Origin: Octopus vulgaris
Lineage: Eukaryota
Length of the DNA: 64,000 nt
Direction: 5' to 3'
Assembly: GCA_951406725.2 (NCBI GenBank)
Contig: OX597823.1
Location: 16,926,001-16,990,000 of the forward strand
The translations under genes were made by a program, and so were the position numbers. The notes under the pieces are model-generated. The model was not told the origin of the DNA. It worked only from the letters and a program-made list of their open reading frames with translations, and did not search any database. Every line of letters starts with the position of its first letter. Positions within the stretch are counted from its first letter, which is position 1. Positions 29,801 through 63,100 of this stretch are shown one piece after another.

Positions 29801-32800
29801 TTACTGCAAAGCGCTCAGCTTATGAAACTGTGATCACAACATTGTATCAGTCACTCAGATATAAAAGAAGCAAGCAGAGTTATGTACCTTACTTGCAGAA
29901 TTAAAAAACAAAAAAAGTTTGTTGAGTTTTTACTAAGATCACAACTGGGGGAGAGTAATTAACCTCATGGTCATCATCATTTAACGTTCGCTTTCCATGC
30001 TGGCATGAGTTGGACGGTTTCACAGGCGCTGGCTAGGTAGAAGACTGCATGCGCTAGGTTTCAGTGTCTGTTTTGGCAGGGGTTTTTTTCATGGATGGAT
30101 GCCCTTTCTAACTCCAACCACCCTGCAGAGTAGACTGAGTGCTTTTTACACGGCACCAGCACAAGCAAAGTTTTTACAGTTGGATGCCCTTCCAAACTTC
30201 AACCACTTTACAGTGTGGACTGAATGCCTTATATGTTTCTACTGTGCCGGTGGCACGTAAAAAGCACCATCCAAAACGTGACCGATGCCAGCGCCGCCTT
30301 GACTGGCATCCATGTCGCTGACACGTAAAGAGCACCAACCAATCGTGGATGTTGCCAGCCACCTCTGGCCCCTGTGCAGGTGGCACGTAAAAAGTATCCA
30401 CTACACTCACGGAGTGGTTGGCATTATGAAGGGCATCCAGCTGTAGAAACACTGCTAGATCAGACTGGAGCCTGGTGCAGCCTCCTGGCTTCCCAGACCC
30501 CGGTTGAACCGTCCAACCAATGCTACCATGGAAAATGGACGTTAAACGATGATGATGACGATGATGATGAAAATTTTGTTTACAATATTTACATGAAAAC
30601 TACAATTTGATCAACAGTCTTGTGAACAAGAACAATGTTAATTTAGAAATAAATGCCCATAGCTTGAAGTGAGTTTAGATGATGTACATATCAAAGAATA
30701 AGACACCTGATGACAATCAGACACCAAACTGATCAAAACAATCATCATCATCATCGTTTAATGTCCGTTTTCCATGCTAGCATGGGTTGGACTGTTCAAC
30801 TGGGGTCTGGTTAGACAGAAGGCTGCGCCAGGCCCAGTCTGATCTGGCAGTGTTTCTACAGCTGGATGCCCTTCCTAACGCCAACCACTCCGAGGGTGTA
30901 GTGGGTGCTTTTTATGTGCCACCTGCACAGGTGCCAGACAAGGCTGGCAACGGCCACAATCGGATGGTGCTTTTTACATGCCACCGGCACGGAGGCCAGT
31001 CAGGGCGGTGCTGGCAATGGCCACGTTCAGATGGTTCTCTTACATGCCACCAGCACTGGTATCTCAGCTACAATTTCCATTGATGTTGAAAGATTTCGAT
31101 TTCGATTTTCACTTGCCTCAACAGGTCTTCACAAGTAGGGTTTGTGTCACAAGAAGGAAAGGTATGCATAAGTGGGCTGGTTACGTCCCAGGTAGAGGCC
31201 ACGGGTTATGGTCTCACTTATCCTGCCGGGTCTTCCCACGCACAGCATACTTCCAAAGGTCTCGGTCTCTGGTCATTTCCTCGGTGAGACCTAAAGTTCG
31301 AAGGTCGTTCTTCACCACCTTGTCCCAGGTTTTCAATGTAAATGTAAATAACATTTTTTAAAAATTCATCTCTAAAGATGATGATAACGGTCTGAAAGAA
31401 TATGACCTTACAATGATTGTAGTAGCAAGTTGGAACTAATAACCACAAAGTGAGTAGTTGAACATATTAATCTTACAAGCATTGGGTCTACATTGTTGTT
31501 TATTAGTAAATATTAAAAGGTGACTAAGAAACAAATATTTGTATAAGAATAAAATTTTTAAAAAAACACTTACTTCAGAATAAGCAAATGTAAGGCCAGT
31601 CACTGAGAACATAACCTCACCAATAGTAATTAGAAGATACTGTGGTATTTGGAGTAACATTGATACAGTGTGTTCTATTAATCCATGAAATATCTTTATA
31701 TCAAACTGCAATAAAGGAAAGTGGAAACATGCATATGAAAAAATGTTAGAATATGAAACTATTTTATCATTTCATTCGCAAAAGTTAAACTTGTTCTGTA
31801 TTATTAAATACACATTAAGGCCAGGATTTACGAGATTAAACATGCTAAAGAGTCTAACACTTTGTATCACAATATTGCTTTTACTAATAATAATAATAAT
31901 AAGAGTTTCTTATTGACTGACAAGGTTAGCCATTTTGAAGTGTTAAGTTAGTCGGATCTTTACCTTTTGACCTACAGATTTAGAAAATAATTTTTTGTAA
32001 CTAAACGCTTTCAAACTTCGTATACTGGTAGAATGTGTCATATAAAACACCTTTTACTCTTAGCGTTTTTGAGAAAAGTTTATGTTTACAAAGTTATTTT
32101 GTGTTGAAGTTCTTGTATTTCAGTAATTTCAACCAATCAATGACGTGTATTCAGCTGAATAAAATTACTGCCGTTGTTTGTCAACAACAACTATCGGCGG
32201 TGTATTTTTTGTTTGTCACTGGTACTGGTTTTAACTTTAAGGTTTTAGGGTTAGGGGGTTAGGGTTAAGGTTAAGGTTTTACGGTTAGGGTTAGGGTCTT
32301 AGAGTTAGGGCTGTAATAAAAACAGTGACAAATGAAATATACACCACCAGAAGTTCTTGTTGACAAACAACAGCAGTAATTTTATTCAGTTGAATACACG
32401 TCATTGATTGGTTGAAATTACCGAAATACAAGAACTTCAACACAAAATAACTTTGTAAACATAAACTTTGCTCAAAAACGCTAAGAGTAAAAGGTGTTTT
32501 ATATGACACATTCTACCATTATACGAAATTTGAAAGTGGAATTTATTTATCAGTTCCAGTGTATTATACCATCATCATTTAATGACTGTCTTCCATTGTT
32601 GGCATTATTTGATCTATCTCTAAGAAGGCAAGCTGGCAGAATCATTAACATGTTAAACAAAATACTTAATGACATTTTGTCTGCATTTAAGTTGGGAGTT
32701 CAAATTCTGCCAGGGTTGACTCTGCCTTTCATCCTTTCAGGGTTGGTAAAATAAGAACTGGGATCAATATAATTGATTTACCCCCTCCCCACCTCCAAAT

Positions 32801-42100: not shown

Positions 42101-44960
42101 GGGTAAAGTGAAATACACAATGAAGTACTGTACCCACATCTAGGACAGTGCTGCTGCTATGTACTCAAACATTAGTACTGTAACCAAAGAAGGACCACTT
42201 GACTGATTGCTATTCAATCATGAAGGGACACACTCAAGCTTGTGGCCAACAAGCAAGCTGCTTCTCTCTCTTTTCTATCATTACCATGATGACCTCTGCT
42301 CCTTGGTGTTTTACCTCTGCCACTCATCACCCTTTGCATTTCCAACCCAACCAACCCTGCATCAACCACTATACCCAATCTTTTCCCACCAGAACATGGA
42401 CCCGTTGGAATCTCTTTCATGCAAGTGTTGAGCTGCTACAGTTTAAACAGAACATTAATGACACTGACCTTACTGGTCTTGGAGGGTCTGCAAAGGTCAT
42501 GACATTGTCCCTTCCTCGAGACTAAGCAAAAGAAAAGATACAACCAGGAGAATATCCTCCATCAGGCATTTGCCATATTCTGAACGCCTTGCTTCCCTGG
42601 GCATGGATACATTGAAACTTTGATGTCTGGCAACTGACTTGGCAGACACCCATAAAATTATCAACCATCTTACTAACAATAACTCTGAGCACCTTTTCAA
42701 ACTCCACCAGTCTAACACCCGTGGACATGTTTACAAAGTCAGAAATCAGCACAGCTCCCATGACTTTCGGAAACATTTTTTCACGCTGAGAGTTACTGAA
42801 GCATGGAACAAACTGCCGGCATCGGTTAGTTGTCGGAGCACTGCATCCTTCAAAACTTCCATGCTTCATGAGATTCGCCAACACTACACCTGATTTTCTC
42901 CCCTCCATACACACACACAGGCATGTATCTGACTCATACACTGTTCACTTTCCAGACATTTGTACATTACTGCATATGCTTTATACGCACCTTTTGACAA
43001 GTTGTGGTGCATCTGAGCACTGTATACAATAATTTCATTATTATTATATTATTATTATTATTATTATTAGAACATGCTTAACAATAAAAGCTTACTAACT
43101 GACCGACTAATTAAACCAGCAAACAAATTTATGTACCGACATACCTCAACTGCATGGATTTTAGTGTCTTGTTCGTAGAAAAATAATCGAGTTGCTTGGC
43201 CTTTGTTAAGCTGAACATCAATTTTGGTCATATTGTCAGACGTACATGATTCAGAATAGTTGACTGTGAAGTTACCAGGATTATTTTTGGTCAAGTTTGA
43301 TGACTGTTTAAAACAGAAAATATAAAAAGTTATAACTAGAAAGTTAAACAAACATTTTCTAGAAAACAAACTATTTTGTTCAAGACTGTTTGGCAGCTAT
43401 TTTGCCAGGCTTACATTTATTTATGAGATGATTTTCGGAAATTTTAGTCATTTATCCTCACCTAACTGCTCAATCATGAAGTAGAAGTGGAATCTATTGT
43501 CAGACAAGCAGACTGAGTCAAATAGGGTTGTGGCATATTTGGGCTTTAACAAAGAATTAATAAACAATTGCAGCGTGGAAGGTGTTTGTAAACCATTTAA
43601 GAAACACACAAAAGCCGTTCGATTCACTTCAACATTTAAGTTTAATTTGTAAAAATATTTTCGGCGCTTTAAGACCGCGACCTGTTCACTGACAACAATC
43701 CGTGCTGCATCTCTTTTTGTCAGTGAACAGGTCACGGTCTTATAGCGACGAAAATATTTTGACAAATTAAACTTAAATGTTGAAGTGAATCGAATGGCTT
43801 TTGTGTGTTTCTTAAATGGCTTACAAACACCTTCCATGCTGCAATTGTTTTCTTTTCAGCACACGATCTCAGATCAAATCACTTGCTATGCAAGTACATC
43901 TCCAAAAAGAATTAATAAAAGTAGGTCAAATACTAAAATCTTTCTTTAAACATCATCATCGTTTAACGTCTGCTTTCCATGCTAGCATGGGTTGGATGAT
44001 TTGACTGAGGGCTGGCGAACCAGATGGCTGCACCAGGCTACAATCTTGATCTGGCAGAGTTTCTACAGCTGGATGCCCTTCCTTATGCCAACCATTCCAA
44101 GAGTGTAGTGGGTGCTTTTACATGCTACCGGCATGGGGGCCAGTCAGGCAGTACTGGCAACGACCTCGCTTGAATGTTTTTACACATGCCACTGGCACAA
44201 GTGCCAGTAAGGCAATGCTGATAACGATCACGCTCAAATGGTGCCTTTTACGTTCCACCGGCACGGATGTCATTTAACCGCTCTGGCAACGATAGCCACT
44301 CTGGCAAAATGGTTAAATCTTGGAGAAAGTCTATAACAATACATATTTAACCCTTTATCATTTAAACCAGCTATATCTGGCCCAAACATTCTACCTGTGT
44401 TATATTCAAACCAGCTAGGTCTGGTCTCGCACATCTACCCAACAATATCATTCTAAAATGTAAGCAATCACACCATGAAAATCTTCAAGCTACAAGATAC
44501 TGCATGGTTAATTTGAGACAATGTGAATAGATAAGCATTACATGTGACAGATTAATTTCAATGCTAAAAGGGTTAAGCTCATTTATCACAGACAAAATAT
44601 TTCTTCTTATATTGGTTACAAAATTCCATGTCTTGTTCCCTAAAAATAATAAAGACATGATATAATAAAGAGTAACCAACAGTTGCGCATCTACAAAAGC
44701 TGCAGGTTTATGGACAGCTTATCAGACTCTATACAAAGACATACTTGCTTTATATAGCTAATAGGTTAAATGAGACATACCTGGCTTCACGGCCGAAACA
44801 GCTGTCAGCTACAATGTAAATGTATTTCTATTTCTTGTTATATTTGTACTATATTAATGTATAATATCATTGCTATTGTGTAGTGGTTTAATAAAGTATT
44901 GATTGGGTATTATCTGATAGTTGATGATTGATTTAGATATATTTCTCCATTTTCTCATTT

Positions 44961-46344: not shown

Positions 46345-49300
46345 AATGTTTCAAATTTTAGCACAAGGCCAACAGCTTTAGGGAAGAAACTAAGTTAATT
46401 ACTTGAGATGAATGCACAACTGGTATCTATTTGTGCCAGAGAAGGAGCTTATATTTAGCCACCAGACCTGCTTAAGAGTCACCCTAAAAAAGTTTTTGAT
46501 AATCAGGCTTCTATATTTCAAATGTTGAATCTTAAGTAGGACATCATATCTTATAACAAAGACATGTCATAAGATATTTATACATACATACATATACATC
46601 TTAAAACAAGGATATATATATATATATATAGGCGCAGGAGTGGCTGTATGGTAAGTAGTTTGCTTACTAACCACATGGCTCCGGGTTCAGTCCCACTGCG
46701 TGGCATCTTGGGCAAGTATCTTCCACTATAGCCTCGGGCCAACCAAAGTCTTGTGAGTGGATTTGGTAGACGGAAACTGAAAGAAGCCTGTCGTATATAT
46801 GTATATATATATATGTGTGTGTATGTTTGTGTGTCTGTGTTTGTCACCCTAGCATTGCTTGACAACCGATGCTGGTATGTTTATGTCCCCGTAACTTAGC
46901 AGTTCGGCAAAAGCGACAGATAGAATAAGTATTGGGCTTACAAAGAATAAGTCCCGGGGTCGATTTGCTCGACTAAAGGCGGTGCTCCAGCGTGGCCACA
47001 GTCAAATGACGGAAACAAGTTAAAAGAGTAAAAGAGAATAGATATTGTCCAACCCATGCTAGCATGGAAAAACGGACGCTAAACGATGATGATGATGATG
47101 ATGATATACACACAAGCACACAAGTCAGATCACTGGTCAATAATTTCATTCCATCAACTGTGTCTAGAGCAGAGGTTTATCTAAGCAGATCTAATTTAGT
47201 TTGCTCAGACACAAAAAGCATAAAAAAAAACAAGTATTTCTATAAAATTCATGCAATAGTTTTATGTTTGCTAAAAGTTTCTTAGCTTATCAAAAATATG
47301 TGCACTTAATTTTATTGTACGTCTCTCATTTGGTACTGAGGCCGTCCATTTAAAATCCACTTCATACAAGGTCATCACCCTTAATAATTTCACATTGATC
47401 CAGTGAGAGAAGAAACATCTGTCATCTTAAAAAAACATCAACAGGCTTATTTTGCAGATACTCTTTTACCCTTTTAGTTGTTTCAGTCATTTGACTGCGG
47501 CCATGCTGGAGCACCGCCTTCAGTCGAGCAAATCGACCCCAGGACTTATTCTTTTTGTAAGCCCAGTACTTATTCTATCGGTCTCTTTTGCCGAACCGCT
47601 AAGTAACGGGGACGTAAACACACCAGCATCGGTTGTCAAGCAATGCTAGGGGAACAAACACAGACACACAAACATATACACACACATACATATATATATA
47701 TATACATATATACGACAGGCTTCTTTCAGTTTCTGTCTACCAAATCCACTCACAAGGCATTGGTCACCCCGGGGCTATAGTAGAAGACACTTGCCCAAGG
47801 TGCCACGCAGTGGGACTGAACCCGGAACCATGTGGTTGGTAAGCAAGCTACTTACCACACAGCCACTCCTGTGCCTATAAATGATGTTCAATTTCATTTA
47901 AAAAATATGTTCAATTTCTTCCTTTCAAACCCAACCCCAATTCGAATGTTAAGAGACCGTTCCCATGGGACTCCGTGTCCACTATTTCACACACACAAAT
48001 GCATTTAGTGGTGTAGAAAAAAATATCTGAATTGAACTTTTGAAAAAAAAACCTTTTACCTAAAAATGACTATGATTTAAGAGAAATTTATTCTCATTAT
48101 TGTTACGTCATTGTGGTGAACTTACATTGAGATGAAGCTGGACAAAGCCAGCCATTAGGAAAGCTGAGGTTGCAAATGTCATTCCAGTCACCATTCTTTG
48201 TAGAGGCCTAGAAAATAGTACAAGAATAAGAAAATTAATAACTAGAAGGAAAAAAAGAAAAGAAAAGAAACAAAACATTTACCTAGTCTTATTTGAATGT
48301 AACATCTGTTTCTTAATTCTGTAAGTGTGTCCATTAGATGTGGTTAAATTATATCTCAGATATTTTGGCTGATAAATATGGTTATTACTTATTGTATACA
48401 GTGCTAGTGGGGTGTCTGAAATATGACTATTGGCATCATGAAATTGGTGCCAGGTGTACAGAAAAATATTCTACTTAGCCAAGTTATGTTACTGTTGGTA
48501 ATTATTTATTTATTCATTACTTAGTTACACATAAAATTTTGAATAGAGAACCACCATGTTTAGTCAAATTGACACCAATATATAATTGATGTGGAGGCGC
48601 AATGGCATAGTCGTTAGGGCAGCGGACTCGCGGTCGCAGGATCGCGGTTTTGATTCCCAGACCGGGCGTTGTAAGTGTTTATTGAGCGAAAACACCTAAA
48701 AGCTCCACGAGGCTCCGGAAGGGGGTGGTGATCCCTGCTGTACTCTTTCACCACTCTTTCTTCTGTTGGCCTGCTCGCTTAGCCAGCGGGGTGGCGTCAT
48801 TCGAAGGCTAAAACAATGCGAACGCATTGTGACCAGCGATGTGTAACATCTGATGGTCTGGTCGGTCACGTGATCACGTGATATAACTGATACCTATTTT
48901 ATTGACCCTGGAGGAATGAAAAGCAAAGTTGACTGATGTGATTTAAATCTAAGATCTAAAAAAGATGAATATAGTAAAAACTTAACATGGCGCTCTAATG
49001 TTTTTTCCAATATTTTATTTTATTTCTGCCCAAAGCCATAAATTCATAGATTAAAACACAAAAACAAAGAAAAGAAGGAAACAAAACATAAAATTAGTAA
49101 ACACTTTACTAAATTTATGATGGGGAATATTGTTATCTATTTCCCCTGATTTAAAATATAAAGCATTGCACTTTGTCCAAAGAAACCAAAATTATTATCT
49201 AAATGGATTATCTAAAGTTAATAAGAATTCCACAGGTTTGATCAGCTCCATTAAGATTTATCAGCTTAAAATCACAGAAACCACTTTAGTAAAAATACTT

Positions 49301-60100: not shown

Positions 60101-63100
60101 CTAACATCCTGTCATCATCATTTAACGTCTGCTCTCCATGCTGGCATGGGTTGGACGGTTCGACCGGGGATCTGGGAAGCCAGAAGGCTGCACCAGGCTC
60201 CAGTCTGATCTGGTAGTGTTTCGACGACTGGACGCCCTTCCTAACGCCAACCACTCTGTGAGTGTATTGGGTGCTTTTTACATGCCAGGCAAGGCTGGCA
60301 ACGACCACGATCGGAATGGTGCTTTTTACGTGCCACCGGCATGGAAGCCAGTCAAGGCAGCGCTGGCATTGGCCACATTCGGATGGTGCTTTTTACGTGC
60401 CACCGGCACAGGTGCCAGGCAAGGCTGGCAATGGCCACGATCGGATTGGTGTTTTTTACGTGCCACCGGCATGGAAGCCAGTCAAGGCGGCGCTGGCATC
60501 GGCCACATTTGGATGGTGCTTTTTACGTGTCACCGGCACGGAAGCCAGTCTAGGCGGCACTGGCATCGGCCACATTCAGATGGTGCTTTTTACGTGCCAC
60601 CGGCACAGGGATTGGCACCGGCGGAGTGAAGAATTTCTTTCATTATTTAATGCTATGGGATAAGGAGGTAAACGCTGGTTTTATTGATCTTCCAAATTTG
60701 AGCAAAAATTATAAGAAAAGACATGACAGATGTTCTAAACAGAAGGTTAAGTTATTGACTGAACTAACACAACCAACCATTTCAGGAATATCTAAAACAA
60801 AATCCTAATTTCCAATGTTTCCAATACAAAAAAAAAAAAAAAAATCTTAGTAAGACTAACAGCACTGTAAGTCTACAGTGAAATAAATAAAAATCTATTT
60901 ATACTTACAAACACACAATGGCAAACTTTACTTAATAAATGTCCAGTTGGAGGAACCTTTTTATATTTCTTGTTACCAGCAATGAAAAACACTGAAATGG
61001 CAAGAAGCTTTGGTCAATAGATATAATATATATGTATATTTGTCTTAGTCTCTCTCTCTCTCTCTCTCTCTCTCAGTTACACAGTCAGAGTTTAACGTAA
61101 CAGTTATGGATTATTACCTGGTAGGCCACACTGACGAGGCTCAGGGTTTAAACACCCAAAAGCCGAAACCTGGTTTGTGGATATGCCTAATAGCATAATA
61201 TTTTTATTTGTGCTGTTAAGTGTTTTAATTCTTTCTGTTTTCTTCGCATACTGTTTTTCTTTGTTATCTTGGTGCTCTATGGTGGATAAATTTAAGACCT
61301 TAGCTCTTATTTCTAGCAGGTGGATGCTTGTTAAGCATCCTTACGCTTCATGCAAATTTATAATTCATAGCTATTTAATGCTATTGCGCCTGCGACCCAC
61401 CTATGTCACTGCTGGTAATATCATCAATTTTAAAATTTATCCACAGATGATATGAACAGTAGTGACATCTGATTTCAAATCTCAAGATTTGAATGTTTTG
61501 CTTATATATATATATATGTATATATAAAATATCATCATTATCATTTAACATTTGTTTTTCATGCTGGCATGGTTTAGACGGTTTCACTGGAACTGGTATA
61601 CTGGAGGGCTGCACCAGATTCCAGTCTGATCTGGCAGTGTTTCTACAGCTAGATGCCCTTCATAATGCCAACCACTCCAAGAGTGTAATGAGTACTCTTT
61701 TATGTGCCACTGGCACGGGTGCCAGTTATGTGACACTGGCATCGACTGTGACTATGATTTCACTTGGCTTGACAAGCCTTCTCAAGCACAGCATATTGCC
61801 AAAGGGCTCAGTCACTTGTCATCGCCTCCGTGAGGCCCCGACATTCGAAGATCATGCTTCGTCACCTTGTCCCATCTCTTCCTGGGTCTACCTATCCTAC
61901 AGGTTCTCTCTACAAGTTAGAGACTGCATTTCTTTACACAGCTGTCTTCAAACCTAGGCTGGCCTGGAGTTAAAAAAAACAACAACGGCTGCAACAACCC
62001 ATCAAAGCCTGCAGGTATACAAGAATAGATTGGAAAGAAGAGAAATCAATATTTTCAGACTCCTACACTGCAGTTTACATGATAAACCTCTGCATGTTGG
62101 AGTCTTACATTTAGCAGGCTTGTAATGATTTGCACCTACATGTTTCATCAACTATAAATGTGCCATAAATCTGTTCAAAGAGGGCTGACCGAGGCTACTT
62201 AACAACAACAACAACGACAAGACGAATACTTACACAGAGCTATAATCATTAAGACGGCAGGAACACCAAAAGCCAATGTGTAACAATCACCACCAAAACA
62301 CTTGACATCAGCTGTAAAAGGATAAAAAAGACAAAATGAATTTAATGTCAATTATGTCAAAATTTCACTGAGAGAGAATGTGGAGTTTCAAACTGCACAA
62401 AATGTGAAAGAGACCTGGATAGATCAAAACTACAGCAGTTCAGTTTTACAACCTAGATTTTCTTCCTTTAGGGTTGGTCCCAAATTTTGTTTCAGAGTAA
62501 AAGTGCTGTGAAGTAATTGCTTTTATAAAATTTCACTCACAAGGGTTTGGTTGACCTAACATTATCAGCATCAACATTTGATGTCCGCTCTTCCACGCTT
62601 GTATGGATCAGATGGAATTTGATGAGGCAGACTTTCTACAACTGGGTGCCTTTCCTGTCGTCCACCTGTTTCCAGGCAAGCTAATATATTCCCATAGCCT
62701 GACATGTTTTTCATGGAAGACTGGAATCAAGCAACCTTGCTTGTATGACAATGATGCTCATTTACGACCATTATGTTATATCTAGACAAAGATACATACA
62801 AGCGCACATACATGCATATACATGTGTGCGTGAGTGTGTGAGAGAGAGAGAGAGAGAGAGATGAGCTTCTTTCAGTTTTTATCTATCAAATCCACTCACA
62901 AGGTTTTGAATGACCCAAGCCTATAGTAGAAGACAGCTGCCCAAGGTGCCATGCAGTGGGACTGAACCCATGACCACATGGTTGTAAAGCAAGTTTCTTA
63001 ACCAAATGGGCACGCCTGTGGAAAACCCTTACCCCAAATTCCATTGGCAAGATTGAAAGTTGATGAAAATAGACCATGTGATTGAAAAGCAAACTTGTTA

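Follow-up and report, generated by a model that had tools for sequence, protein, structure and literature searches.

Minimal type I hammerhead ribozymes located in the pLTRs of Penelope-like elements (PLEs) were described by Cervera and de la Peña (2014, PMC4209133). That work and a later review (PMC6765202) already cover their 9a base, the palindromic form of helix III and an activity that is low and depends on dimers; the text and Fig. S3 of the former present the extra 9a nucleotide as a conserved trait and U17 as common. Inverted, 5′-truncated copies bearing a tail are likewise a known PLE architecture (PMC8557442), and Frangieh et al. (2024, PMC11167929) have reported that the tail is delimited by two sites within the ORF at which RT starts and that both DNA strands are cleaved and extended. 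Within the hammerhead core, the pair between positions 3 and 8 was proved by engineered C3G/G8C rescue (PMC11167929, PMC8495972, PMC3884650), and the natural covariation that we found in print is U3-A8, which is the form named in PMC4209133 and the only one named in the text available of the work on natural core variants by Perreault et al. (2011, PMC3088659), where 3-8 covariation is also found. Here we analyze a stretch of 64,000 nucleotides from Octopus vulgaris (the window) and the genomic copies related to an insertion within it, and describe a PLE lineage fixed for the G-C form of this pair across thousands of copies and accompanied by a matched C3-G8 sister, providing a natural comparison for PLE hammerhead function.

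The octopus motif shares with the hammerheads of PMC4209133 the pLTR site, the topology, the 9a base, the G10.1-C11.1 pair, the short palindromic helix III, the NUH site with U17 common and the occurrence of dispersed single and opposite-strand copies, but its core is GUGANCA, and none of the 56 motifs in Fig. S3 of that work begins GUGA. G at 9a falls outside the consensus given there (H), yet it is present in Hydra-clade motifs (PMC8557442 file S2). G3-C8 is absent from the same 56 motifs and from file S2 of PMC8557442, and the text available of PMC6155905, PMC7229834, PMC13282606 and bioRxiv 10.64898/2026.07.22.740005 mentions no natural instance; a report of one was not found in the literature text at hand, and Lünse, Weinberg and Breaker (2017) or Przybilski and Hammann (2007) may already list one. 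The Poseidon PLE of Anolis (PAc, PMC11167929) resembles the octopus element in having a hammerhead close to where the ORF begins, a pair of RT start sites within the ORF that set the tail, and AT-rich targets, and its engineered C3G/G8C double mutant has the core pair that in the octopus is natural and fixed. The two differ in their tails (30-40 nt in PAc, 55 nt in octopus) and in the placement of the motif, which overlaps the ATG in PAc and ends about 50 nt before it in octopus.

The sequence-only reading of the window had described a palindrome carrying two core-swapped hammerhead-like motifs, one per strand. The inverted repeat is present, its arms (43562-43698 and 43714-43850) being 94% complementary, although each arm measures 137 nt rather than the 134 first given; the motif coordinates agree (Table 1), and the GUGAACA core, the extra G at 9a, the AAUAUU palindrome and the UUU triplet all read as described. 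The triplet and the extra G had been listed as caveats, and both are seen, but they cease to be oddities given the conserved 9a base and the frequency of U17 in PLE hammerheads (PMC4209133). What had been overlooked is the extent of the inserted unit (43565-43903), with its 14-bp duplication, its 55-nt tail reaching 43903 and its ORF codons. The locus is an ordinary decayed PLE insertion, a retrotransposition scar, whose left arm appears to start at a putative 3′ splice site (AG/ATG). Transporter exon frames occur both upstream and downstream of it, and the insertion is therefore intronic; the proposed minus-strand PepT host gene is supported by PTR2 matches in two of the three frames tested, both under the Pfam curated cut-off.

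Table 1. Coordinates of the PLE insertion and of its host gene within the window
Feature	Position	Strand	Remarks
Host gene, downstream exon frame, POT/PTR2 peptide transporter	31439..31771	-	PF00854 E 1.6e-5, under curated cut-off
Target-site duplication, left copy, 14 bp	43551..43564	.	Identical to 43906-43919
Left arm, 5′-truncated PLE end without tail	43565..43712	-	Putative 3′ splice site to first 3′ end point
PLE ORF first codons, left arm	43565..43596	-	Position matches ATG of full-length copy L154
Hammerhead-like motif, minus copy	43646..43696	-	G3 43689, C8 43684
Right arm, 5′-truncated PLE end with tail	43714..43903	+	From within stem I to second 3′ end point
Hammerhead-like motif, plus copy	43716..43766	+	G3 43723, C8 43728, U17 43759 (predicted cut after)
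PLE RT/GIY-YIG ORF, first 29 codons	43816..43903	+	Frame runs on into long ORF of L154
PLE tail, 55 nt, between two 3′ end points	43849..43903	+	End points from 30 loci
Target-site duplication, right copy	43906..43919	.	Same 14 bp as left copy
Host gene, upstream exon frame, POT/PTR2 peptide transporter	62202..62351	-	PF00854 E 5.6e-5, under curated cut-off

Traced upstream from single copies, the arm leads to a microsatellite-rich 3′ region of about 1 kb and then to an ORF with RT and C-terminal GIY-YIG domains. The suggested PLE origin and adjacency to such an ORF are thus borne out by full-length parents, in which the ORF begins about 90 nt downstream of the motif (counted from G3), and both window arms extend into the first ORF codons. 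The parent L154 has a pLTR-ORF-pLTR architecture with motifs at 2742 and 7003, and pLTRs in partial tandem are found in L154, L147 and L148. The parent proteins of L147 (an open frame of 1,025 aa), L154 and L100 show GIY-YIG above the Pfam cut-off and a YVDD RT motif by direct reading; the Pfam RT family returned no match in these three proteins, and Pfam gave nothing informative on three partial ORFs. An open frame running across the motif itself was rejected as the PLE ORF, which begins downstream in a different frame. The Zn-finger spacing of the linker, compared by eye and on motif spacing alone, resembles the rows of the Nematis clade of EN+ PLEs in PMC8557442 Fig. S2, with which the octopus element shares a C-terminal GIY-YIG and a C-x3-C-x2-C linker with the next Cys close behind, unlike the Neptune rows of the same figure, where a long spacer precedes that Cys. 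Related PLEs in a metagenome scan amounted to one weak locus among 109 stretches.

In the 30 loci that matched the arm best, 44 of the 45 copy ends lie at one of two points 55 nt apart. Half of these loci (15/30) are inverted pairs and half single arms, and 14 of the 15 inverted loci have one arm at each 3′ end point, a rule that provides genomic support for two-strand priming, hitherto observed only in vitro (PMC11167929). The long inverted repeat, together with weak Rfam miRNA scores lying far under the gathering thresholds, could suggest a microRNA hairpin or a MITE-like DNA transposon that resembles a hammerhead by coincidence, but the 15 single-arm loci, the variable junctions and unequal ends of the inverted pairs and the continuity of the arm with the PLE ORF leave such an origin with almost no credibility, and the full-length PLE parents refute both versions of it. 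The 5′ ends of copies cluster near the putative 3′ splice site (26 of 45 within reference positions 21-33, with AG/ATG at 25), and the tail end is complementary to the same 6-7 bases near AG/ATG (window 43700-43713, L001-L030). A possible pLTR intron is outlined by a branch-point-like CTAAC, a pyrimidine run and an AG 20 nt ahead of the motif; no spliced read was seen among the contigs, the only material covered, in a stretch starting inside the putative intron.

The motif itself is not a product of chance, because a 24-mer spanning stem I, core and stem II has 1,115 exact genomic matches and a 21-mer with N7 free and G3-C8 has 5,747, against none for the reversed control of either. The canonical CUGANGA core is absent, and GUGANCA, in 5,747 copies, keeps the 3-8 Watson-Crick pair with its letters swapped. 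The type I minimal-hammerhead topology inferred earlier is upheld by stems I and II, which fold in intact copies (L154, z -3.05), and by two-sided pair changes across families. The same holds for the claim of a natural covariant pair: among 11 natural copies, positions 3 and 8 are C-G in six and G-C in five, 7 of 15 pairs (3-8 included) are altered on both sides, and pairing cells amount to 88.5% compared with 23-43% when partners are slid by 1-3 columns, in a set whose 11 rows represent few evolutionary events. A direct comparison comes from a sister family of PLEs whose protein is 55% identical over 815 aa. It has a C3-G8 hammerhead at the same pre-ORF position, with a CUGAUGA or CUGAUGC core, and shares G9a and the stem II base with the swapped family; the sister pattern has 4,563 matches, and 99 of 100 among the matches listed are truly of that type. 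Two further C3-G8 sisters have CUGAAGA. U4, G5, A6, A9, G12, A13, A14, A15.1-U16.1, H17 and G10.1-C11.1 are the majority in all families, including an old set defined without any motif pattern. Helix III is palindromic in the young (AAUAUU) and old (AAUU) families, with G9a throughout, and an imperfect palindrome (AGAACU) in the sister; the energy of an intermolecular helix III is marginal (-0.2 kcal/mol).

Rfam yields no hammerhead match up to E 10 in the window, and none for L154, L249 or the canonical sister L198. Since a sister with the canonical core is missed as well, the swap does not explain the Rfam miss, whereas the statement that CUGANGA-based searches would overlook the motif is true by construction. 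The G3-C8 swap is a genuine natural variant of the known ribozyme across the whole lineage, and its predicted activity is likely.

Young copies decay evenly by about 2%, so that only comparisons between source families count for conservation, and the anticipated excess of core over flank conservation is accordingly uninformative among young copies but does appear between families, where the core is kept and the spacer is 35/47 identical. Old copies diverge from their majority by 14%, and young copies by 2%. When a search in the old stem II context leaves positions 3 and 8 unconstrained, the old family shows G3 in 23/28 and C8 in 26/28 copies, and C3-G8 in none. Identified by downstream sequence alone, in the 21 of 30 loci that hold the motif region (nine truncated loci being left out), it shows G3 in 12/21 and C8 in 12/21, each a majority, G8 in none and U17 in 20/21. 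The old and young majorities agree at 14 core positions (naive P 0.016) but not at N7 or in loop II, and the palindrome lengthens from AAUU to AAUAUU while pair 2.6-1.6 passes from G-C to U-A; the stem II CpG columns of this comparison were taken from the pattern-selected set, and the loop II variation seen in old copies selected by pattern was left aside as possible neutral decay. A second old family has the majority GTGACCA, with low column support, and three families in succession have G3-C8 as their majority state. A pattern with N7 other than A has 237 matches, against 26 in the control, with N7 as C, U or G and A9 largely kept.

This persistence bears directly on the notion of drift in a dead ribozyme, in which two independent substitutions would have turned out fortuitously complementary. 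Such drift would accommodate both the G3·G8 state, which is present and has spread, and the fact that the swap is a single evolutionary event in this genome, but we deem it very improbable: G3-C8 held its majority through the three families though the spacer changed at 12/47 positions, the stems and the stem III palindrome were preserved through compensating changes, and G8 is missing from the old family. The G3 families also carry U17, and the C3 sisters mostly C17. A G3-C8 variant was reported to be less active with C17 than with G17, as data not shown (PMC3884650); the association of U17 with G3 stems from one event and is therefore consistent with co-adaptation rather than proof of it.

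Cleaved RNA, if reverse-copied, would give insertions starting at the 17/1.1 junction, a site chosen beforehand. Six patterns were used, each retrieving copies that leave the family at one position, and 30 loci per pattern were classed. At the predicted cut, 19 of 30 loci sampled from 118 are 5′ truncations, which scales to 75 +/- 10, compared with 48, 34, 32, 48 and 37 at five neighbouring positions; the cut-site count falls to about 59 once four rows explained by stem I microhomology or duplication are removed. The peak at the predicted cut represents about 1% of copies, and the small excess at U17 is a weak hint of cleavage in vivo. On a more far-reaching reading, which we advance tentatively and would not yet favor, the G3-C8 hammerhead may have worked for tens of millions of years in the whole PLE lineage with U17 co-adapted, the truncation peak at U17 would record cleavage, and PLE families called hammerhead-less may hide swapped cores, because the published descriptors examined fix C3 and G8.

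Several results weigh against an active swapped ribozyme. Of 349 position-8 variants, the 100 listed carry G in 41 rows, U in 41 and A in 18, corresponding to about 140 copies with an unpaired G3·G8 when scaled from this hand count; sources with a broken pair have therefore transposed, as expected if insertion proceeds without cleavage (PMC11167929). The mirror change of position 3 to C occurs in 11 among 100 listed of 176, or about 19 copies, none of them C3-G8. A U·C mismatch in stem II is present in about one quarter of 51 young copies. The young intact sister (1,312-aa frames; L155:2630-2677, L197-L226) has CUGAUGC, with A9 changed to C in 89% of 28 sampled copies, which implies that these cores may be only loosely constrained; A9 is kept in four older-type sister copies. 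The engineered C3G/G8C double swap, for its part, rescues hammerhead activity only in part (PMC11167929, PMC8495972). As separate observations, the G3·G8 copies span several loop II contexts (L286, L288, L290, L291, L297), and CUGAUGC adds another atypical core, carried by a family that is very active.

These results could be taken to mean that a hammerhead-descended fold is retained to serve RNA stability, the initiation of translation or the assembly of the RNP, with the 3-8 pair holding the junction and cleavage lost. In agreement with this, lineages with G3·G8, with a mismatched stem II or, in the sister, with A9C have all spread, and for the anole PLE the portions of PMC11167929 available report hammerhead mutants without effect on insertion in vitro and no reads ending at the cut site. 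We nevertheless regard this account as rather unlikely, because U4, G5, A6, A9, G12, A13, A14, A15.1 and U16.1 are fixed while N7 varies, and because a truncation excess is located at U17.

We consider it probable that the locus is one scar of two inverted 5′-truncated PLE ends, that natural G3-C8 keeps slow, dimer- or protein-assisted cleavage in intact elements, and that the window copies are inert. Under this preferred reading, the PLE protein would nick both DNA strands about 14 bp apart, one cDNA would be primed per strand, the first from one internal start site and the second from the other, and their head-to-head joining would give an inverted pair. In the source RNA, G3 would pair with C8 just as C3 does with G8, the AAUAUU palindromes of two copies would build helix III, and cleavage would follow U17, a residue that would avoid the G3-C17 mispair that C17 would permit; individual jumps could proceed without any need for cleavage.

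At the window locus, the antisense arm would be transcribed first on either strand, and the motif would therefore be trapped in a 137-bp duplex. The region is predicted to fold as one long hairpin (-222 kcal/mol), in line with the earlier proposal that such a hairpin would sequester the motif. The stem mismatches noted previously are seen in both copies: the plus copy has a single A·C mismatch in stem II, and the minus copy is mispaired in stem I (2.2-1.2) and also in stem II (10.2-11.2). Their hammerhead folds are computed at -7.0 and -0.8 kcal/mol, compared with -12.4 and -13.3 kcal/mol for intact copies, and the minus copy (-0.8 kcal/mol) prefers an alternative fold; both window copies are thus predicted to be inert. 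The 137-bp intronic duplex (43565-43850) would presumably suit A-to-I editing well.

The window element also departs from non-LTR retrozymes (PMC7229834; bioRxiv 10.64898/2026.07.22.740005) in being inverted and not a head-to-tail tandem. A likeness to these is confined to the swapped array at L031:4094-9029 (29.7 head-to-tail copies of a 166-bp unit, 97% matches), which is retrozyme-like and where dimers could form, although its unit includes flanking sequence and looks as if a single insertion had been amplified locally.

The contribution of this locus lies in joining a clean swapped core of seven bases with copies in the thousands, a time series of families and a canonical sister that matches it. 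CUGANGA descriptors undercount such motifs, which bears on the PLE clades reported without them (PMC8557442 used seq=cuganga).

The same genome holds other PLE families (L035:6492-7499, L099:5572-7088, L160), among which are Neptune-like frames and canonical CUGAUGA minimal hammerheads with an ACGU palindrome. In L103, an LTR retrotransposon is inserted within a PLE copy. Contig ends from two sequencing runs labelled as other organisms show the GTGAACAG core, and these runs may be from very close kin. Two phage contigs (L375, L449; IMG/VR) contain complete type I hammerhead folds with G3-C8, and 3 of 120 sampled phage G3-C8 matches pass the stem filter (two of them convincing), compared with 0 of 120 for a G3-G8 control. 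Finally, the intron that harbors the insertion also holds a second, larger inverted pair, formed by a common short repeat (46624-47024 and 47472-47882).
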